A DNA stretch of 24,000 nt from Patescibacteria group bacterium. Lineage in GTDB: Bacteria; Patescibacteriota; Minisyncoccia; Phycocordibacterales; JACZSL01. The stretch is from assembly GCA_022561335.1 (NCBI GenBank), contig JADFRL010000004.1:23817-47816 (forward strand). The letters are read 5' to 3'. A model generated the notes under the pieces. The model worked only from the letters and a program-made list of their open reading frames with translations, searched no databases and had not been told where the DNA came from. Shown in pieces: positions 1,882 to 18,921 of the stretch. A program made the position numbers and the translations under genes. The first letter of the stretch is position 1. Each line of letters opens with the position of its first letter.

Positions 1882-2733
1882 TCAAGCTGACAGGGGTGGG
1901 TCCATACGCACATGAACAAGTTCAACGCCTTTCGGAATCAGAACCTCTTGCGCTCCTAAAAGCGAGTACCCTTCGGCATAGTACACATGCTTTATGCCAG
2001 AATTGGCAATGGCATACGCGCACGGTGGGCATGGAAATGTTGTTATATAGAGAGATGCTCCTTCCAGGCATACTCCGTTACGCGCCGCAGCACTAATGAT
2101 GCCCACCTCCGCGTGAAGCGCAGACGACATCTCAATTGACTCTCCCGGCTCAAAGTGACTTCTGGGGTCACCTACGAGATAAGGAGTATGCTCCGAGGGT
2201 TGATGCCTGTTAAACGCACCGAAAAGAATAGCCCCGTCCTTCACTGCAATAGCGCCGACTTGACGCCACCAATCAGAACTCTTCTCGGATTGCTCATACG
2301 CCCTCCCCATGAGTTCGCGGTCGAGTTCCTTATATGTCACCGCCCTGTGTTCAATGGGCGCATTTTTCTTTCGAGAACTGCCCCAATCCCAGCGAAGCCA
2401 GACCGATTCATAATGAATCAACGTGCCCTTGAAGTACTTCTCCGCAAGAGCATGAGAAACATCTTCGTCCGGCATCACGAGCGAACTTTCAGACATGAGA
2501 GCCCTGATTCCTTCCGACTTAAGGACATGAACCTCAGAGAAAATACCTAGAGAGCGTAGCATCCGTACAACATCTTCCGGCGTGTTTGCCGGAAGGTTCC
2601 GCACGAGGCTCGTGTGTTCCTTGATGAGCTCGGAGCCCATCACATAGAGCACCCCACCTTCATACTTTCGGAAGAATTCGATGTACCCTCGATGCGGGGA
2701 AGGAACGTAGGAAACGATGATTGCCTTCGACAT
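1882..2733 (-). CDS. dCMP/cytidine deaminase-fold protein with an extra ~125-aa N-terminal domain
   Basis: C-terminal half carries the zinc motifs HAEVGIISAAARNG ... TTFPCPPCAYAI. The N-terminal domain (MSKAIIVSYVPSPHRGYIEFF...) is unassigned. Its start overlaps the upstream gene's stop (TGATG). Confidence 0.85.
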   Translation of the reverse strand: MSKAIIVSYVPSPHRGYIEFFRKYEGGVLYVMGSELIKEHTSLVRNLPANTPEDVVRMLRSLGIFSEVHVLKSEGIRALMSESSLVMPDEDVSHALAEKYFKGTLIHYESVWLRWDWGSSRKKNAPIEHRAVTYKELDRELMGRAYEQSEKSSDWWRQVGAIAVKDGAILFGAFNRHQPSEHTPYLVGDPRSHFEPGESIEMSSALHAEVGIISAAARNGVCLEGASLYITTFPCPPCAYAIANSGIKHVYYAEGYSLLGAQEVLIPKGVELVHVRMDPPLSA

Positions 2734-3383
2734 CAGTCATCTCCCTTGAAATAGCCCGTAATGGTCTTCTGCACCAAATCGCCAAGTTCCGAAGCACCAT
2801 CAATAGCAACCCGACGTATACGAGCAGACGTTGATGTTTCCGCCTGTGGTTCCAAGTTCACCAAGTGACCACAATATTCCTTGAGGCTTTCGAAATCAGG
2901 CAGATCTTTTGTCGACATCGAAACAATGCGGACATCCGGCATGACGATCTTGTAGAGCGTGTCCTTTTCGTACTGCGGTGTCACGATGTCTACCGCACGA
3001 AGGTATGAGAGAACTTGATATCGCTCATCTTCCGGTACGATCGGACGAGTCGGCCCTTTGCGCTCCCGCGTCAACTTGTCGACGTCGACACCAATAACCA
3101 TGATCACACGCTCAGCTTTAGGACAAAGCTGTTCTGCATCTGATCGGCCACGTGTAATATATTTCGCATGGCCAATATGAAAGAGATCCCAGACGCCCAT
3201 AGTAAGCGCGACCGCACAACCCATCTTCCGAAACTGCTCGAGCAACTCGTTGAGTTCATCGTGGTTCGGAACGAATCGATCATCAAATGTCCCGACACCC
3301 CTCACAATTCGCGTTGCGCGCTGCATCAGAGGATTTGGTTTTGTGAGTGTATAACTACCCACCTTTCTTTTCGTACTTCTCAT
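2733..3383 (-). CDS. Cytidylyl/adenylyltransferase-family protein (HxGH nucleotidyltransferase, TagD / RfaE-domain-II-like)
   Basis: GVWDLFHIGHAKYI (HxGH) plus VIGVDVDKLTRERKGPTRPIVPEDERYQVLSYLRAVDIV. GAGAGG Shine-Dalgarno 5 nt before the ATG. Confidence 0.8.
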   Translation of the reverse strand: MRSTKRKVGSYTLTKPNPLMQRATRIVRGVGTFDDRFVPNHDELNELLEQFRKMGCAVALTMGVWDLFHIGHAKYITRGRSDAEQLCPKAERVIMVIGVDVDKLTRERKGPTRPIVPEDERYQVLSYLRAVDIVTPQYEKDTLYKIVMPDVRIVSMSTKDLPDFESLKEYCGHLVNLEPQAETSTSARIRRVAIDGASELGDLVQKTITGYFKGDD

Positions 3384-3430
3384 GATAACCTCTCTGTGAA
3401 GATCTAAACTATCGACAGGATAGCACTTTC

Positions 3431-3467
3431 CTTTAAAAACAAAAGGCTCGACAATTTCGAGCCTTTT
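3431..3467 (-). terminator. Rho-independent terminator after rplK
   Basis: GGCTCGA-CAATT-TCGAGCC hairpin (3445-3463). On the minus strand it is followed by TTTTGTTTTT. Confidence 0.75.
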
Positions 3468-3497
3468 GTACTATTTATTAAATAGAAAGATATTATT

Positions 3498-3920
3498 TTA
3501 CTTCACCTCGATGCCCATCGAACGAGCCGTCCCTTCGATGATGCGCATAGCGGCATCAATATCGTTTGCATTCAGGTCGGGCATTTTAATTTCGGCAATT
3601 TCCTTGACTTGAGCCTTGGTCACGGTTCCGGCTTTGCTCACCAAATTCTTGCCGGATCCTTTGGGTTTGCCGATCGCCTTGAGGAGAAGTTGTGAGGCAA
3701 GAGGAGTCCTCAATACAAAATCGAAGCTGCGATCTTCATATACCAAAATTTCAACAGGAACAATGTTGCCGACCATATCGGAAGTCGCTTCATTGAATCG
3801 GTTTACAAAATCACCTATATTGATGCCCGCCTGCCCAAGCGCAGGACCAATCGGCGGTGCAGGTGTCGCCTTACCGCCCTGAATTTGAAGTTTTAATTTT
3901 CTTTCCACCTTTTTTGCCAT
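3498..3920 (-). CDS. rplK: 50S ribosomal protein L11
   Basis: [35 protein letters not shown]... is canonical L11. Confidence 0.97.
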
Positions 3921-4648: not shown

Positions 4649-4834
4649 TTAGTTAAAAATAAAAATATCGAGGAGTTTTGTAAAAACAAAATCAAAAAAA
4701 CCAAGAAAGAGCGAGGTGAGAATAGAAACAATAACAATGAGAATCGTAAAGCTAATGGTTTGTTTTCGTGTCGGCCAGTTCACATGCTTAAGCTCGCCTC
4801 TGGTGTCTTTAAAATATTGAATCAGTCGGTTCAT
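4649..4834 (-). CDS. secE: Preprotein translocase subunit SecE
   Basis: 61 aa, ELKHVNWPTRKQT followed by a single TM helix. Positioned immediately upstream of nusG. Confidence 0.9.
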   Translation of the reverse strand: MNRLIQYFKDTRGELKHVNWPTRKQTISFTILIVIVSILTSLFLGFFDFVFTKLLDIFIFN

Positions 4835-4960
4835 CCCGTTAGAGGCAGGTCGCGGTCGATAAACCGCGCTGCAGAGTTATTATATTTTTAAACAAGATTC
4901 GATAGTTCCTCATACTTTTTGATCATCCATCCAGCGACCGCGGCCTCTAACGGGATTCAT
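4829..4960. repeat. Inverted-repeat element copy A (132 bp) overlapping the secE start codon
   Basis: Arms 4835-4858 (cccgttagaggcAGGTcgcggtcg) and 4935-4954 (cgaccgcggcctctaacggg) pair over 12+8 bp with a 4-nt bulge. Flanks are gTTCAT (4829-4834) and aTTCAT (4955-4960). A 17-mer at 4946-4962 is identical to 9094-9110. Confidence 0.8.
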
Positions 4961-5002
4961 AAGCATCGCGTACTAAAAATCGCCCCGCAGGGCAATGAGA
5001 AC

Positions 5003-5030
5003 ATAGTATAGAATCCAAAAAAAAAGTCAA
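5003..5030 (-). promoter_or_regulatory. Candidate sigma70-type promoter for the secE-nusG-rplK operon
   Basis: Minus sense: TTGACT (5025-5030), about 16 nt, TACTAT. The alternative -10 TATACT gives only a 14-nt spacer. A T9 tract sits in the spacer. Confidence 0.35.
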
Positions 5031-9041: not shown

Positions 9042-9108
9042 ATACATCCTGTTAGTATAATTGACGATTAAAAACAACTCAGTTGTTTTTAATTCTAACG
9101 GGATTCAT
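9042..9108. repeat. Inverted-repeat element copy B (short, 67 bp)
   Basis: Arms cctgttagTATaatt (9048-9062) and aattctaacggg (9091-9102). Flanks are atacat and attcat. The interior is a 9-bp hairpin AAAAACAAC-TCA-GTTGTTTTT (9070-9090). Confidence 0.7.
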
Positions 9109-10271: not shown

Positions 10272-10568
10272 TTAATGAATAAATGTATGCATTACCTGCC
10301 TTAAATTATCCACCAATTCATTATCGTTTACCTCATAGCACACCGATTGCCCGTCTCTGTATGAAAAGACAATGTTATGTGCTTCAAGCTTTGAAAGCTG
10401 ATGCGAGGCGGCTGAATGCGAGATACTGACCTTCTCTGCTATATCGGTCACACAAAGCTCTCCTTCCGATTCAAACAAGAACGAGAGTATCTTAAACCGA
10501 GTGGGATCGGAAAGAATCTTAAAGGCTGTAGTTGCTTTTGATACTTTTTCCAAATATAAGGGCTTCAT
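10272..10568 (-). CDS. ArsR/SmtB-family metal-responsive transcriptional repressor
   Basis: LSDPTRFKILSFL ... ELCVTDIAEKVSISHSAASHQLSKLEAHNIV is the winged-HTH signature. C-terminal DNE...MHTFIH resembles an alpha-5 metal site. I prefer ATG 10568 (98 aa) because the longer ORF would read through the operator palindrome. Confidence 0.85.
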   Translation of the reverse strand: MKPLYLEKVSKATTAFKILSDPTRFKILSFLFESEGELCVTDIAEKVSISHSAASHQLSKLEAHNIVFSYRDGQSVCYEVNDNELVDNLRQVMHTFIH

Positions 10569-10590
10569 AGACTTACTAATATATGAACAT

Positions 10591-10610
10591 ACGTTCATAT
10601 TATTACAACA
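10591..10610. promoter_or_regulatory. Putative ArsR/SmtB operator in the arsR / ZIP divergent region
   Basis: ATATGAACATACGTTCATAT is palindromic at 9 of 10 mirrored pairs. It contains a TGAACA..(T/C)GTTCA core like known SmtB/CzrA-type operators as I recall them. Lies 22 nt upstream of the preferred arsR start. Confidence 0.6.
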
Positions 10611-10714
10611 CCACATGAAGTCAATTGGTTTCATTTAATGAGCTCAAGTATATCTGTATTCATCTGCGACTACTGTTGCGCATGTGTTAGTTGCACTATA
10701 TTATCTTAACTATC

Positions 10715-11509
10715 ATGGAATTAACGACTATCTATGCTCTGGCAAGTGTCGTGCTGATAAGTTTGGTGTCATTGGTAGGCATTACTATTATTTCACTTAA
10801 GGAGGCGTTCCTTAGAAAAAATATGTTTCTACTGGTAAGCCTTGCTGTGGGAGCACTTTTTGGAAATACGTTTATTTTTTTGATACCGGAAGCATACGGA
10901 ACATTCGACAATACCCCGGCAATATCATTTCTTATTATCACCGGAATTGTGCTGTCATTTATACTTGAGAAATTCTTGCTTTGGCGCCACGAACACGGCC
11001 ATGGGGGCACGGAAAATCATCACGATGAAGAAATCGAATTAATAGAAAAGCAGAGCGGGCATATAAAGCCTGTAGGCATTCTTATACTTGTTTCAGACGG
11101 TGTACACAATTTTATTGACGGCATCATTATTGGCGCAACCTATCTTATAAGTATAGAAGTAGGCATAGCAACTACTGTAGCGGTCATTCTTCACGAAATA
11201 CCCCAGGAAATAAGTGATTTTGGCATCCTTCTCCATGCAGGGTTCAGTAAAGCAAAGGCTCTGCTTTTTAATTTTCTTTCTGCTATTACGGCAATTCTGG
11301 GAACGCTCATTGCACTGTTTCTGGGCACAGCAATTAAAGCGTTTATACCAGCCATTGCAGCTTTTGCTGCTGGCAGTTTCCTCTACATAGCAGGATCTGA
11401 TCTGGTGCCAGAATTACACAAAACCTCAGATTTTAAACGCTCACTGCAGCAGCTTGCTGCTATTCTTGTCGGCATTGCTCTTATGTTTGCACTTCTCCTG
11501 CTTGAGTAA
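10715..11509 (+). CDS. ZIP-family divalent metal (zinc) transporter
   Basis: HNFIDGIIIGA and HEIPQEISDFGILL signature helices, with a His-rich loop HEHGHGGTENHHDEE. ATG 10715 preferred over TTG 10691. Confidence 0.88.
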   Translation: MELTTIYALASVVLISLVSLVGITIISLKEAFLRKNMFLLVSLAVGALFGNTFIFLIPEAYGTFDNTPAISFLIITGIVLSFILEKFLLWRHEHGHGGTENHHDEEIELIEKQSGHIKPVGILILVSDGVHNFIDGIIIGATYLISIEVGIATTVAVILHEIPQEISDFGILLHAGFSKAKALLFNFLSAITAILGTLIALFLGTAIKAFIPAIAAFAAGSFLYIAGSDLVPELHKTSDFKRSLQQLAAILVGIALMFALLLLE

Positions 11510-11587
11510 AACACCGCTACTCCCCCTGACACTCCCGCATTAAACGCTAATGCGGATCTGCCCTAATTATGACGCCGCAATTTTTTG

Positions 11588-12076
11588 CTAATAGAAAAAC
11601 CGTTGAGTCCCGTCCTCACAATCATCAAAAAACAGTGACTCCTGCCCGCTACTTGAATCTAAAATAACAGAGTAGCATATGGTGTCTGACTTCCCCGATT
11701 TCCCAAATCTGTCTCTGCTGTCAACATAGACATGCGCCTTGCATCCCAGCGGCGCTTCTCCCTCTACAACTGCAGTGGTATAGATAGGGTCCCCCTCGAT
11801 AGTTAAAAGTTTTTGATGAATCTTAGCCAATCGACATCCATCGTATGCTTCTTTAAAACATTCCCGCATACTTTTATTATATCCAAAGCCTCCTCTCAGC
11901 TCTTCATTGCCGCAATCCTTAAACTGGCTGTCCCAATCACGATAAAATTGAAATGCTTCGCCTCCGTTTTCAGATACATCATTGCCGATAATACCTGCAC
12001 CAAAATAGAATGCGGTCCCTGCCGCTGCTACTATGAGCACTCCTATTATAATTCCAGTCAGCTGTTTTTTATCCAT
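11588..12076 (-). CDS. Hypothetical Cys-containing membrane-anchored protein (possibly DUF4362-like)
   Basis: Starts MDKKQLTGIIIGVLIVAAAG (TM anchor). LLTIEGDPIYTTAVVEG resembles the TxEGDPI core I associate with DUF4362. The track's GTG 12103 start would read through the repeat arm, so ATG 12076 is preferred. Confidence 0.6.
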   Translation of the reverse strand: MDKKQLTGIIIGVLIVAAAGTAFYFGAGIIGNDVSENGGEAFQFYRDWDSQFKDCGNEELRGGFGYNKSMRECFKEAYDGCRLAKIHQKLLTIEGDPIYTTAVVEGEAPLGCKAHVYVDSRDRFGKSGKSDTICYSVILDSSSGQESLFFDDCEDGTQRFFY

Positions 12077-12201
12077 CCCGTTAGTAATAGGACGCGAACA
12101 CACAGCATCCTAGTTCCTCATTTAAGGTGTGGTTAAAAATCGACCTTTGCCATATCATATAAAAATTATTTGTTACGCGTCCTACTACTAATGGAATCCA
12201 T
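12071..12201. repeat. Inverted-repeat element copy C (131 bp) overlapping the start codon of the 11588-12076 gene
   Basis: Arms 12077-12096 (cccgttagtaataggacgcg) and 12176-12195 (cgcgtcctactactaatgga) are complementary at 17 of 20 positions. Both flanks are a perfect ATCCAT (12071-12076, 12196-12201). It shares the interior 11-mer tagttcctcat (12111-12121) with copy A (4903-4913). Confidence 0.8.
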
Positions 12202-12526
12202 ACATCAAATTATAGCAAAGATAAACTATGCAACTTCGCGAAGCTTCTGCTGAGAAATATTAAACAAATACACTGAAAACGTAAAACGCCAGCCGTAACT
12301 GACGTCGTACGCTATGCATTATGCAGTAACACCTTTGTCCGTCTCTAGGTGTTACTTAGAGTTGGACATGCGTATGCATGCTCTAATTGTAATTCGCTTT
12401 TGTCTTTTTTCAAATAAAAGATGTGCATAAGTGTTGCATAACCTGTGTCTAAGCCACTCAAGTATATTTTTTAGCCCATGTTCACCTTTCTACACACCTT
12501 ACATACGACAAGAAACGTCCAGTAAT

Positions 12527-13180
12527 TTAACGAGACGTTCTTTTTGTTTTGAATTCATCAAAACTCTTGCACAAAAAATACTTATTATGTTTCTTCTCAA
12601 AGGCTATGTCAGAAACAGGCTTTGGCCCGTAGTCATGACCGCAGTAAATGAGCGTATCATCTGGAAGCTTCTTAAGCCTTTCCAAACTATTATAGAGATC
12701 CTTAATATTGCTGTGGGGCAAATCAGTTCGTCCGCACCCCTCTACAAAGAGAGTATCTCCTGTTATAAGTTTGGGGGTGCCGTCCGTGGCGTGTTCTTTT
12801 GAAATGTAGTAGCATACGGCATCATCGATATGGCCCGGTGTATACATAACTTCTACAGAAAGTTTTCCAATCGAAATAGTATTTCCATCATTTACGAAAC
12901 GCTCAAGTTCTTGTGGGACTTCGACACGCCCCCTTGCATTCATATGCATATAGACAGGAATCTTATATTTTTGAATAAGCGCCTCGACTCCCTCGGAATG
13001 ATCAAAGTGGCTGTGTGTGAGTAAAACTGCGCTTGGCTGAAATGTATTCGCATATATTTCAGCTAACATATCATCCATATCACCAGCAGGATCGACGACG
13101 GCAATTTCTTTGCTTACACCATCGTTTACGAAGTAAGAAAAGTTGTTATCGAATCCTCCAACTGAGAGTTGCGTAATCAT
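12527..13180 (-). CDS. MBL-fold metallo-hydrolase (hydroxyacylglutathione hydrolase-like)
   Basis: LLTHSHFDHSEG (HxHxDH), later TPGHIDD and CGHDY metal ligands. Confidence 0.85.
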   Translation of the reverse strand: MITQLSVGGFDNNFSYFVNDGVSKEIAVVDPAGDMDDMLAEIYANTFQPSAVLLTHSHFDHSEGVEALIQKYKIPVYMHMNARGRVEVPQELERFVNDGNTISIGKLSVEVMYTPGHIDDAVCYYISKEHATDGTPKLITGDTLFVEGCGRTDLPHSNIKDLYNSLERLKKLPDDTLIYCGHDYGPKPVSDIAFEKKHNKYFLCKSFDEFKTKRTSR

Positions 13181-13191
13181 GATAGTTATTA

Positions 13192-13341
13192 CTACTCAAG
13201 TGCTCCTTGAAGAGCTCGATTTCGTTCAACCACCCTGTCCCGAGTGTCCACTGCACGCTCAATACCAGAAATTCCCTGCTCTATCACCGACCCATCCTTG
13301 ATAACCTTACTTCTTTTCCCATCTATCTTTATCTCTGCCAT
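13192..13341 (-). CDS. Possible small protein (49 aa from Met13 of the listed ORF)
   Basis: The only ORF filling the 126-nt mazG-MBL gap. It overlaps the mazG 3' end in another frame. No recognisable motif. Confidence 0.25.
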   Translation of the reverse strand: MAEIKIDGKRSKVIKDGSVIEQGISGIERAVDTRDRVVERNRALQGALE

Positions 13342-13621
13342 AACATTTATCCATGACGGAAGAAAATCCTCGATCAATATCTAAATCAAGAGAGTTTGCT
13401 AGACATGATAAAGTAAATATAATATCTGCTATTTCATCTTCAAGTTCCTTTTTATCTTCAGAGCTTTTCTTTTTCTTTGGACCGAATCGGTGATTTATCT
13501 CCCTCGCAAGCTCACCCGTCTCTTCGGTAAGGCGGGCCATTATCTCAAGAGGTTTCCAATAGCCAATTTTATATTGCTGGACCCAATCATCTACCTGTTT
13601 TTGATAATCTTTCATAATCAT
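13307..13621 (-). CDS. MazG-like nucleotide pyrophosphohydrolase (small single-domain type)
   Basis: LTEETGELAREINHRFGPKKK ... ELEDEIADIIFTLSCLANSLDLD ... YGRDKDRW shows the EExGE...ExxD pattern of MazG/YpjD-type NTP-PPases. Confidence 0.8.
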   Translation of the reverse strand: MIMKDYQKQVDDWVQQYKIGYWKPLEIMARLTEETGELAREINHRFGPKKKKSSEDKKELEDEIADIIFTLSCLANSLDLDIDRGFSSVMDKCYGRDKDRWEKK

Positions 13622-16028: not shown

Positions 16029-16784
16029 TTAATTTTCAAGCTCTTTGAGCGCATGCTTAAAATCATCCGGCAGTGGTGCCTCAACCTTTAACGTTGTCGC
16101 TCTGGGCATTGTAATCACAAGTGATCGAGCGTGAAGCGCAAGCCGTTTGAAGCCAAGTTTGCATGGTCGTTTAGGCGCATAAAGCTTGTCGCATACTATA
16201 GGATGGTGTAGGGCTTTGAAGTGAACACGCAACTGATGGGTACGGCCCGTTTTAGGAAAAGCTTTAGCATAGGTAAATCCTTTTCCCTTTTTGATAACCG
16301 TAAACTCCGTAATAGCCCCGCGGTGTTCGCCCCGTGCCCCGGGTTGAGCCGAGCGCAGCCGAAAATCTTTAGCGCTTCGTGCAATAGGCCGGTTAATGAC
16401 CCCGCGTTCCTCTTTTAGTTCACCATAAAGAAATACATTGTATATTTTCTCAACAAGTCTACTTTTAAATTGATCCTTCACATAGAAATAGGTATGCTGA
16501 TTTTTTACCAGCATTAACACTCCTGAAGTTTCCCTATCAAGCCGATGCACAATGCCCGGGCGAGAAATAGTATCACCCGATTTAAGAACCGAAGGCTCGC
16601 CCACTTCTTTTGATTCCGGATACTGCTCAAGCATCCAGGTAGCTACCGTATAGTCCTTTGTCCTGCCATCGGAGTGTATAACAAGACCTGCAGGTTTATT
16701 AATAACTACTACACTTTCATCTTCATAGAGAATAGGAATCTCCACCCTACTGGAAGTTTTTCTTTTTTCTCCGTCAGCATCCAT
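16029..16784 (-). CDS. RluA-family pseudouridine synthase (no S4 domain)
   Basis: VVVINKPAGLVIH and the catalytic HRLDRETSGVLMLVKN motif, plus GRTHQLRVH. Confidence 0.9.
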   Translation of the reverse strand: MDADGEKRKTSSRVEIPILYEDESVVVINKPAGLVIHSDGRTKDYTVATWMLEQYPESKEVGEPSVLKSGDTISRPGIVHRLDRETSGVLMLVKNQHTYFYVKDQFKSRLVEKIYNVFLYGELKEERGVINRPIARSAKDFRLRSAQPGARGEHRGAITEFTVIKKGKGFTYAKAFPKTGRTHQLRVHFKALHHPIVCDKLYAPKRPCKLGFKRLALHARSLVITMPRATTLKVEAPLPDDFKHALKELEN

Positions 16785-16835
16785 ACATCAATCGGTTTAA
16801 TTATACAGCACTCCTAACGGGGTGGCGGCTTCCCC

Positions 16836-17925: not shown

Positions 17926-17998
<73 letters not shown>

Positions 17999-18011
17999 CT
18001 ACAAACAATGA

Positions 18012-18045
18012 ACCCAACAGGATGTGTTGGGTAATTTTGTTTATT
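18012..18045 (+). terminator. Rho-independent terminator after tRNA-Val
   Basis: ACCCAACA-GGATG-TGTTGGGT followed by AATTTTGTTTATT. Confidence 0.65.
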
Positions 18046-18047
18046 GA

Positions 18048-18064
18048 GCGGTGAGGGATTTGAA
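18048..18064. repeat. Inverted 17-nt copy of the tRNA-Val T-loop-to-acceptor segment
   Basis: GCGGTGAGGGATTTGAA is the exact reverse complement of 17979-17995 (TTCAAATCCCTCACCGC). Confidence 0.85.
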
Positions 18065-18296
18065 GAGCGGAGGCGGGCGGCGGGGTGAGAGCGTACGATT
18101 TCGTTCAGAGCCACCACGCGCTTGGCGTGTGGGACATTAGTCCGCATTTTTAATAAAATAAGTTCGAGCAAAGTTGTATAATTCCACCAGAATTAAACAA
18201 CTCCGCTAAGTAAAAGCTTAGAAAGCTCCTGTTCTGCCTTCACCCGCCTATCTTTGCGTACTTTAGGGAAATAGTTTAGAACCCGCAAAAGTTTAG

Positions 18297-18323
18297 GAAC
18301 GGCTCAACTCCGTTGAGCCGTTC
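18297..18323. repeat. Palindromic hairpin repeat, copy 2 (AACGGCTCAAC / GTTGAGCCGTT)
   Basis: gAACGGCTCAAC-TCC-GTTGAGCCGTTc. Same 11-nt arms as 15324-15349, with a different loop and a flipped (compensated) closing pair. Confidence 0.8.
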
Positions 18324-18336
18324 AAACTGAAATTCT

Positions 18337-18355
18337 GTGCCCCGGGGAGGAATCG
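18337..18355 (-). repeat. tRNA-Arg 3' fragment (acceptor 3' strand, T-stem and part of the T-loop)
   Basis: gtgccccGgggaggaatcg versus 18660-18678 gtgccccCgggaggaatcg (18 of 19 identical). Similarity stops inside the T-loop. Confidence 0.8.
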
Positions 18356-18610
18356 GTCAGGAGTCAATTATTTTCATATTCACAAACTCATTGAAAATAT
18401 ATCGCTCACGACCCTGGCTCACTCCTTACATCGTTCCGCCTTTCGATTCCATAGACCAAATTTGTGGTCACGAATCACTAAGTATATTTCTTCATTACAT
18501 TTAAAATCTACTAAGTGTTCTCGACCCCGGCTCGACTGTTTTTGCATTAGGAATTGCAAAAACATGTCTCCGCCCGGCACCAAGACACGAATACAAAGCA
18601 GTTTGTATTC

Positions 18611-18654
18611 TAAACCAAAACCACATGGCATTAATGCCATGTGGTTTTGGTTTA
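18611..18654. repeat. 44-bp perfect palindrome adjacent to the tRNA-Arg 3' end (likely bidirectional hairpin/terminator)
   Basis: TAAACCAAAACCACATGGCATT|AATGCCATGTGGTTTTGGTTTA, with 22-nt arms and no loop. Confidence 0.8.
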
Positions 18655-18660
18655 TCTTAG

Positions 18661-18732
18661 TGCCCCCGGGAGGAATCGAACCCCCATCCAAAGCTTAGAA
18701 GTCTCTTGTTTTATCCATTAAACTACAGGGGC
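18661..18732 (-). tRNA. tRNA-Arg (anticodon TCT)
   Basis: GCCCCTG TA GTTT AATGGATA AAAC A AGAGA CTTCTAA GCTTT GGATG GGGGG TTCGATT CCTCC CGGGGGC A. There is one A.G mismatch at 31:39. CCA is not encoded. Confidence 0.88.
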
Positions 18733-18867
18733 AATTAGAACATTATTATACTATACCGTTCGATTAGGAATCGATCCTTACAGGATCAGTACAGGTTGTC
18801 GATATTTTATCTCGCTTCACTCACAAAATATCTGGCAACCTTTTGAAACAGTGCCCCGCACTGCTTC

Positions 18868-18921
18868 AACCCCCATCCAAAGCTTAGAAGTCTCTTGTTT
18901 TATCCATTAAACTACAGGGGC
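18868..18921 (-). repeat. Exact 54-nt duplicate of the tRNA-Arg 5' portion (positions 1 to ~54), lacking a functional T-arm/3' acceptor
   Basis: 18868-18921 is identical to 18679-18732 (aacccccatccaaagcttagaagtctcttgttttatccattaaactacaggggc). The sequence beyond the T-loop breakpoint diverges (ctgcttc versus ggaatcg). Confidence 0.9.

Follow-up and report, generated by a model that had tools for sequence, protein, structure and literature searches.

The window analysed here is a 24,000-nt stretch from a Patescibacteria group bacterium (contig JADFRL010000004.1, positions 23,817 to 47,816). The feature in question, here called copy C, is a 131-bp palindromic sequence on its minus strand (12071–12201), directly upstream of a gene for a 162-aa protein (gene C). 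Copy C is most probably (roughly 75%) a non-autonomous insertion element, resembling a MITE (miniature inverted-repeat transposable element), that inserted at the start codon of gene C and rebuilt it, with expression of the gene proceeding, as we infer, by way of a short upstream open reading frame (uORF). It belongs to a widespread MITE-like palindromic family of Paceibacteria-type Patescibacteria (Candidate Phyla Radiation, CPR) that is apparently undescribed. Neither the motif nor start-codon repeats in CPR bacteria were matched in the searchable literature, a result bounded by that literature and no proof of novelty.

Start-codon position and target duplication

The family is recognised by the termini ATCCCGTTAGA...TCTAACGGGAT, with full ends ATG(A/G)ATCCCGTTAG ... 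CTAACGGGATG and terminal inverted repeats (TIRs) of the form 5'-(A)TCCCGTTAGA ... TCTAACGGGA(T)-3'. Three copies are present in the window, all on the gene strand and directly 5' of a gene. Each was scored with a covariance model built from 70 metagenomic copies only, and each scored higher on the gene strand.

4833–4956, minus strand: copy A, directly before secE; flanks ATGA (4960–4957) and GAAC, gene ATG at 4834–4832; covariance model 72.4 bits, E = 2e-14
9046–9104, minus strand: copy B, a short form (59 nt) before a thioredoxin-like gene; covariance model 18.6 bits, E = 0.035
12076–12196, minus strand: copy C, the element proper (TCC...GGGA), whose last base A12076 is the A of the gene ATG; covariance model, family alignment and fold

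The 3' ATG of copy B starts an ORF of 7 codons, and the end of this ORF and the true ATG overlap in an ATGA. Copy C matched the model over 12075–12197, with 26.8 bits (E = 5e-4) on the minus strand and 15.1 bits on the plus strand.

A metagenome scan with the pattern ATCCCGTTAGN{78,108}CTAACGGGAT, which covers the long size class only (gap 78–108), returned at least 120 contigs with exact paired termini, containing at least 127 elements. The family statistics below (n = 127, 108 or 78) rest mainly on the copies among the metagenome matches listed. Looser scans of 80 related genomes found more copies in Zambryskibacteria and other Paceibacteria. Related copies elsewhere, which the original prediction had named as a check, are thus abundant, and the insertion model that it implied holds.

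The position of the elements relative to genes was highly uniform. In 106 of the 127 listed copies, the last AT of the element and the next G form the ATG of an ORF of at least 60 codons, and in 7 more the frame stays open as far as the contig runs; the A of the gene ATG is therefore the last base of the element in 113 of 127 (~90%). The same arrangement of a 3' ATG leading into a long ORF essentially never occurred in the opposite orientation. Homologues of SecE and of the gene C product start at the equivalent ATG, which marks these as true gene starts. A further sign of orientation is a CCT on the 3' arm in 41 copies versus an AGG on the 5' arm in 2; the asymmetric CCT/TCT bulge is gene-proximal and lies beyond pair 14. 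This asymmetry indicates that the orientation relative to the gene is fixed.

The flanks point to a short target-site duplication. Among 78 ATG-flanked copies, the 5' flank was ATGA in 60, ATGG in 15, or else ATGT, and the 3' flanks were correspondingly GAA, GGA and GTA. Concordant pairs made up 75 of the 78 (60 ATGA/ATGAA, 14 ATGG/ATGGA and 1 ATGT/ATGTA), and it is this co-variation of the flanking base that argues for duplication. Four copies lack the upstream ATG: L178 and L186 read GTAAA|TCCC...GGGA|TAAA, and L115 and L202 have GTG; the 5' flanks of the four (GTAAA or GTGNA) thus face ATAAA or ATGNA on the 3' side. From these non-ATG flanks, the duplication is a unit of 4 bp, T(G/A)NA, and the downstream ATG takes its A from the element.

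Presence of the element also varies at orthologous sites. Upstream of secE, 76 of 78 relatives have no element, and only the window and L063 have one. The typical secE leader of the relatives runs from a promoter through a GC hairpin with a T-run and a short A-rich spacer to the ATG; excising copy A plus one ATGAA gives back exactly this normal leader, ...gatttttagtacgcgatgcttATGAAC. In L001 a copy separates arsR from a DUF3179 gene, whereas the window has just 10 nt of spacer at this place. At gene C, all eight same-species contigs (those with the 171-aa call described below) carry the element.

The secE-nusG leader was itself conserved in more than 70 Paceibacteria (window 4979–5030; L002–L080), with a consensus promoter, directly after it a GC-rich hairpin followed by a T-run (ggggTTTTTTAATA), and a short spacer that lacks a Shine-Dalgarno (SD) sequence. 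The hairpin is attenuator-like or a 5'-stabiliser.

Anatomy of copy C

On the minus strand, copy C and its surroundings read ...TTTGCTATAAT TTGATGT ATGGAT TCCATTAGTAGTAGGACGCG (79 nt) CGCGTCCTATTACTAACGGG ATGGAT AAAAAACAG... The ATGGAT direct repeats (12201–12196 and 12076–12071) are where the original prediction had placed them, and the second is the gene start. The 5' arm TCCATTAGTAGTAGGACGCG (12195–12176) and the 3' arm CGCGTCCTATTACTAACGGG (12096–12077) are complementary at 17 of 20 positions. The mismatches in a minus-sense RNA are U.G, A.C and G.U, two of the three being wobble pairs, and direct reading thus agreed with the prediction here as well. An independent repeat search returned arms of 27 nt with 81% complementarity. 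The RNA fold had an energy of −40.1 kcal/mol (z = −3.98), none of 200 shuffles was as stable, and the AU of the second (gene) AUG was base-paired at the foot of the stem. In the family alignment, the duplication of copy C is TGGA, or ATGGA when the terminal bases of the element are included; the sixth matching base of the repeat (T) arose from a C-to-T change in the terminal repeat, which is ATTCCATTAG here and ATCCCGTTAG in the family. The features of the locus are as follows.

12209–12217, minus strand: extended −10 box TGcTATAAT, read directly; ctttgctataattt is kept in sister lineages L212–L219, which then diverge into different hairpins
12198–12201, minus strand: 5' flank ATGG, read as the original start codon of the gene from flank co-variation across the family
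12200–12197, minus strand: upstream copy TGGA of the target-site duplication, from flank co-variation across the family
12176–12197, minus strand: 5' arm, made up of the terminal inverted repeat ATTCCATTAG and TAGTAGGACGCG, which extends the stem; sequence, repeat search and fold
12166–12201, minus strand: uORF from the original start codon, MDSISSRTRNK*, 11 codons plus TAA, spanning the entire 5' arm; hand translation
12111–12121, minus strand: 11-mer ATGAGGAACTA of copies A and C, the only two among 108 elements to hold it; no family motif and probably no SD sequence
12075–12096, minus strand: 3' arm CGCGTCCTATTACTAACGGGAT, holding the gene-proximal CCT motif, a built-in TAA (12083–12081) and the AT of the start codon
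12072–12075, minus strand: downstream copy TGGA of the target-site duplication, which with A12076 makes the functional ATG; homologues begin MNKKQL... at the equivalent ATG
11588–12076, minus strand: downstream gene, 162 aa (MDKKQ...), with an N-terminal membrane anchor, Cys-rich, no Pfam domain

The −10 box was confirmed at 12217–12209, with the predicted 7-nt gap (12208–12202) before the first ATG, as was the interior motif shared with copy A (ATGAGGAACTA at 12121–12111). The GAGGA core within that motif, proposed earlier as Shine-Dalgarno-like, did not stand: it is found in only 5 of 108 copies, and SD sequences are not used in this lineage.

Comparison with close relatives showed how copy C has changed. 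The 5' arm of strain L088, TCCGTTAGTAATAGGACGCG, is complementary at 19 of 20 positions, giving nearly perfect arms, and two of the three mismatches in the window are therefore recent and uncompensated. L088 shares sequence with the window only from TTTTGCTATAAT onward. Sister lineages whose gene C protein is 76–78% identical (L212–L219) keep the flanking DNA and the TGCTATAAT box, and between this box and the ATG they have an unrelated 111-nt hairpin, TTACCCTCC...GGAGGGTAA|ATG (L212 1163–1273; also L213 and L215–L219). Among the sequences examined, this second hairpin was found at the gene C locus only, not as a repeat family. An uninterrupted copy C junction (...TTGATGTATGGATAAAAAACAG), which the original prediction had suggested looking for, was not found as an empty site among the eight same-species contigs and the 76–78% homologues; a clean replacement by the other hairpin was seen instead. 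The exact 162-aa product of gene C had no record in public databases.

Upstream of the element, L088 (1–205) and the window (12218–12420) are entirely different from about 21 nt before it, while the promoter box, element and gene are common; the breakpoint, at the promoter, reflects either a rearrangement or a chimeric assembly. The contigs of L086, L089 and L091 begin at ~12152, ~12127 and ~12151, inside the hairpin loop, which is probably an assembler artefact at the palindrome.

Public gene calls place the start of gene C at a GTG (12103), giving 171 aa. The nine additional codons, MCSRPITNG (12077–12103), are the 3' arm of the element; since the homologues have 162 aa and lack MCSRPITNG, these codons are an artefact that the element has brought into the annotation.

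Family structure and stem co-variation

Elements range from 59 to 126 bp and have no coding capacity of their own, with just incidental short ORFs whose peptides are unconserved. Their interiors are AT-rich and, apart from sub-families, similar only at background level. The stem is conserved much further. Pairs 1–11 were 98–100% Watson-Crick, although positions 1–10 of these were set by the search pattern. Pairs 12–14 co-vary (A-T, G-C, T-A and C-G) and were 93–96% Watson-Crick, versus 41–48% with shuffled partners. G.U made up 1–2% at the co-varying pairs, with no preference over other mismatches. Across 108 copies, the sense and antisense strands folded equally well (−37.6 vs. −37.0 kcal/mol; 59 vs. 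48 copies; p = 0.2). The original prediction had called its strand evidence mixed, and the family as a whole gives the same picture. The equal folding of both strands and the lack of a G.U excess suggest that constraint on the palindrome acts at the level of DNA, or of both strands, and not of a sense RNA; we accordingly rejected RNA-level selection on the sense strand. A known RNA family was also rejected, as only tRNAs reached the gathering score in the window with Rfam 15 and permissive thresholds gave no match either, the best hits over the elements having E = 4.5–8.6.

Two variants of the family architecture were noted. L184 (6130–6368) holds a head-to-tail dimer of two 119-nt elements with one common ATGA junction. 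A sub-family (L129, L150, L160, L182, L196 and L207) has an additional internal CTAACGGG just after the 5' end, which could fold locally into a small hairpin in place of the long one.

A proposed route to expression

According to the preferred reading, the element would insert with a 4-bp duplication of T(G/A)NA, the target in about nine of ten copies being the TGNA of an ATGNA start. Because the element ends in A, this base and the duplicated TG rebuild an ATG in frame with the gene. For copy C, the target would have been the TGGA of ATGGAT; the upstream ATGGAT would be the old start, still beside the gene's own TGcTATAAT promoter, and the downstream ATGGAT would be the working start. The upstream ATG had been predicted to be a decoy. 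The second ATG is indeed the true start, but the upstream one appears to be the original start of the gene and not a decoy borne by the element.

Almost no gene in the window has an SD sequence. As this lineage makes no use of SD sequences and the foot of a hairpin of about −40 kcal/mol holds the rebuilt AUG, ribosomes probably initiate at the old one, whose position may be at the mRNA 5' end or one base from it (the −10 box of copy C is 7 nt away). They would then translate a short uORF over the 5' arm and melt the stem, and this melting would free the rebuilt AUG for initiation, or re-initiation would occur there. The termini of the family look suited to such a route, with a stop-free 5' entry and a 3' end that offers either a TAA 7 nt before the AUG or an AUGA overlap in another frame.

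Family statistics are in line with this proposal. The uORFs open with ATG-NAT-CCC-GTT-AGA (MNPVR or MDPVR), and all have at least 7 codons, enough to span the terminal repeat. The interior was stop-free in the frame of the old ATG in 36 of 78 copies, compared with 1–13 of 78 in the other five frames and a mean of 9.1 (maximum 16) for shuffled interiors. Of the full-length uORFs, 21 stop at the TAA within CTAACGGGATG, 7 nt before the AUG, and 12 in an AUGA overlap; in-frame fusion with the gene was seen in 2 of 78. Lengths that would put the two ATGs in frame were under-represented (13, vs. 36 and 29 for the other two frames). The peptide sequences of the uORFs are unconserved. This bias toward open uORFs suggests selection for the passage of ribosomes, which would melt the hairpin and bring them to the rebuilt AUG, a form of translational coupling.

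A location of copy C at or near the mRNA 5' end, as first predicted, is plausible: the TGcTATAAT box is kept in the sister lineages right up to the start of their hairpin, which would put the transcript start at or next to the first ATG. The claim is qualified by a structured region upstream (12285–12413, minus strand) that bears a promoter-like site of its own, so that copy C might instead lie within a longer leader.

This upstream region is about 100 nt of conserved, structured sequence, GCATGTCCAACTCTAAGTAACACCTAGAGACGGACAAAGGTGTTAC...GACGTCAGTTACGGCTGGCGTT followed by a terminator-like T-run. It has a promoter-like site (TTGAAA-16-TACAAT) and no Rfam match, and is kept in the sister lineages and in the distant homologues L220 and L222, which have a different upstream neighbour and the same downstream gene family. 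We regard it as a candidate riboswitch-like leader with a possible pseudoknot.

Several observations weigh against the insertion reading or narrow it. The length of the duplication was not perfectly uniform: NATG|ATCCCG, found in eight copies, would be 3 bp or the result of a 1-nt deletion, and in a few others the duplication looks 5 bp long. A DDE-type transposase acting on symmetric termini alone would not explain the fixed orientation, and the bias toward start codons could reflect selection after insertion and not targeting. The metagenome sample was ascertained by exact 10-nt termini, which inflated the apparent terminal conservation. Interiors of copies within a contig were no more alike than those of random pairs, two pairs excepted, which speaks against a recent burst. 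No autonomous element or transposase with the family termini was found in ~2 Mb of related sequence; long pairs of termini were seen only in L095 (2.9 kb) and L157 (0.4 kb), enclosing housekeeping genes or nothing. Clustering of 841 ORFs from 120 metagenome loci (768 kb of flanks) gave housekeeping families only, with no recurrent transposase, integrase or Y1 enzyme. As to expression, the uORF of copy C ends after 11 codons, 90 nt before the gene AUG, and those of copies A and B also stop early. Termination and re-initiation at the built-in stops is thus inapplicable to these three copies, and for copy C the model would shrink to unmasking of the AUG by stem melting. Finally, the upstream ATG has been lost in about a quarter of the family copies and is not strictly required.

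Alternative explanations

Folded single-strand recombination sites offer an alternative that we consider unlikely. Under it, the family would be of the integron attC or REP/REPIN type and moved by a site-specific recombinase or an HUH (Y1) enzyme that recognises the hairpin shape and bulge, and the (A)TGNA repeat would be a shared crossover core instead of a staggered-cut duplication. In attC sites, the orientation is set by extrahelical bases. The family resembles them in its conserved hairpin foot, co-varying deeper pairs, free interior and variable length (59–126 nt), and its asymmetric bulge is always on the same arm, with the orientation fixed relative to an asymmetric target. The absence of G.U excess and the equal folding of both strands likewise favour a DNA structure, the lack of a DDE partner in ~2 Mb of related sequence fits, and the heptamers GTTAGAR and YTCTAAC equal the consensus of the integron core, GTTRRRY/RYYYAAC. 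The boxes, however, come in inverted order: GTTAG...CTAAC (GTTAGA...TCTAAC on both strands) in the family and RYYYAAC...GTTRRRY in attC. Copies also lie 5' of housekeeping genes (secE, neighbours of LeuRS, ABC transporters) and not 3' of cassette ORFs, and neither an integrase nor a Y1 transposase recurs in the 768 kb of flanks. On the nature of the repeat itself, crossover core and target duplication are inseparable by sequence alone.

A vertically inherited cis-regulatory RNA leader (a protein-binding site, thermosensor, 5' mRNA stabiliser or RNase III site) with a true decoy start and no mobility is very unlikely, even though it accommodates the strong fold, the start codon in the stem foot, and the placement right after a conserved promoter, by which the mRNA would begin with the hairpin. 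The sister lineages keep a hairpin of similar size and unrelated sequence at the same site, so the hairpin as such may be useful, and the conserved termini with interiors diverged to background also fit. Such a leader does not account for variable presence at orthologous sites, for downstream genes of unrelated function, or for the co-varying base N of the direct repeats, which RNA pairing leaves unexplained. Sense folding brought no advantage, G.U was not in excess, Rfam gave no match, and the window copy has gained an uncompensated A.C mismatch relative to L088. Least credible to us is a portable expression cassette that would bring promoter, ribosome-binding site (RBS; GAGGA) and ATG. Nearly all copies do contribute the A of the ATG with their 3' end, and inside copy C a GAGGA is followed by ATG or GTG; repeats with promoter, RBS and ATG have precedents in Neisseria REP2 and the Borrelia IR repeats (PMC3184786). 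Against it, GAGGA occurs in 5 of 108 copies at no fixed position, the genes of this organism lack SD sequences, and copy C has its promoter beyond the limits of the element. Hexamers resembling −10 boxes were found in 72 copies on the sense strand vs. 85 on the antisense strand at no fixed distance, and an outward promoter inside the element was rejected on this ground.

Relation to known elements

The Neisseria Correia/NEMIS, enterobacterial ERIC/IRU and Yersinia YPAL elements are co-transcribed with their neighbours as stable hairpins able to alter the fate of the mRNA (review PMC3184786). The present family is like them in being non-coding, multi-copy and small (they are ~100–170 bp), with TIRs and a short duplication; small size, shared TIRs, short flanking duplications and many dispersed copies of variable presence are the features of a MITE. 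It differs in its unrelated termini, CPR host, lack of an Rfam match and duplication of T(G/A)NA instead of TA, and further in that ~90% of its copies lie on a start codon and rebuild it, in fixed orientation, with hardly conserved interiors. Membership of Correia/NEMIS was rejected, since the termini are ATCCCGTTAGA and the duplication TGNA, while the Correia consensus has 26-bp repeats, a TA duplication and an IHF site.

REP2 and the Borrelia repeats are similar to the family in lying directly upstream of ORFs with a 3' end that gives a fused ATG (PMC3184786). REP2, in contrast, has no TIRs and brings its own promoter and RBS; the family has TIRs and a duplication, no consistent promoter or RBS, and leaves the old start as a uORF. 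The Rickettsia palindromic elements (RPE) are likewise palindromic mobile repeats, located in or at the edge of coding regions and compatible with translation (PMC3184786). RPE are translated within the host protein, whereas in-frame fusion is rare here and the usual outcome is a separate uORF that stops beside the gene ATG; an RPE-like in-frame insertion was rejected, with 2 of 78 copies reading through and copy C stopping after 11 codons. PATE, derived from IS200/IS605, was also rejected, as it has no TIRs, no duplication and separate subterminal hairpins, while the ends of the family pair together between co-varying duplication flanks. Start codons in a stem whose 5' arm lies inside an upstream ORF occur in the coat-replicase pair of the RNA phage MS2 and with erm leader peptides, where translational coupling works through upstream translation that opens the inhibitory hairpin. 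Unlike these, the arrangement proposed here, as read from sequence, would arise ready-made wherever the mobile element inserts, at many genes that have nothing to do with one another. The family is thus distinct from hairpin MITEs, REP2 and the Borrelia repeats in its terminal sequence, T(G/A)NA duplication, near-exclusive oriented start-codon position and uORF arrangement.

Whether these differences set the family apart as its own class of mobile DNA, which might be called a "start-codon element" with ends evolved for nearly harmless insertion into the TGNA of ATGNA, is doubtful on present evidence, and we put it forward tentatively. If it were so, the design would comprise the rebuilt ATG, an old ATG recruiting ribosomes, the stop-free entry (MNPVR...) and built-in stops (TAA at −7, AUGA) that hand ribosomes on. 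Such elements would act as plug-in translational regulators in CPR bacteria that lack SD sequences and are poor in leaders, and start codons would perhaps be actively targeted by a strand-specific mechanism on single-stranded DNA. The combination of a start-codon position in about nine of ten copies, fixed orientation and an ATG rebuilt from the element's own last base was not found in the searchable literature. Target duplication, hairpin co-variation and strict orientation together may point to an unusual route of transposition or recombination. The statistics of the open uORFs provide a testable idea for gene expression without SD pairing, with a bearing on translation initiation in CPR, and the element accounts for mis-annotated N-termini and probably for assembly breaks inside the hairpin within one species.

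Host context and other repeats in the window

The window is part of a chromosome of Paceibacteria-type Patescibacteria, with thyA, folA, secE-nusG-rplK and scattered tRNAs. The NusG encoded here shares no more than 81% identity with the NusG of metagenome-assembled genomes labelled Zambryskibacteria, Taylorbacteria and Paceibacterota. A phage or plasmid origin was rejected on the basis of this gene content and the NusG relatives, and a megablast search of 10500–13500 against phage records was empty. No rplA (uL1) follows rplK (window 2733–3920). For a uL1-less subgroup of Parcubacteria, less frequent detection of the anti-SD motif in 16S rRNA has been reported (PMC9297842); the missing rplA and the starts without SD sequences in the window are consistent with that anti-SD-poor subgroup.

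A series of motifs lies at 16784–16830 (minus strand), before the gene at 16029–16784. It begins with CACCCCGTTAGGAG, which resembles half a terminus, followed by TGCTGTATAAT and TTGATGTATGGAT, and its last 13 nt are identical to the 5' flank of copy C. The series looks like a repeated promoter-leader module or a remnant of an element.

Repeats related to tRNAs occupy another part of the window. The first 54 nt of tRNA-Arg(TCT) are perfectly duplicated 189 nt away (18679–18732 and 18868–18921), its 3' 19 nt occur again at 18337–18355, and a similar segment of the anticodon region is found at 18213–18233. A perfect palindrome of 22+22 nt lies at 18611–18654, and tRNA-Val has an inverted copy of its 3' end 14 nt downstream, with which that end pairs. 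These repeats (17979–18064 and 18213–18921; ~1 kb without ORFs) may be integration scars or tRNA pseudogenes.

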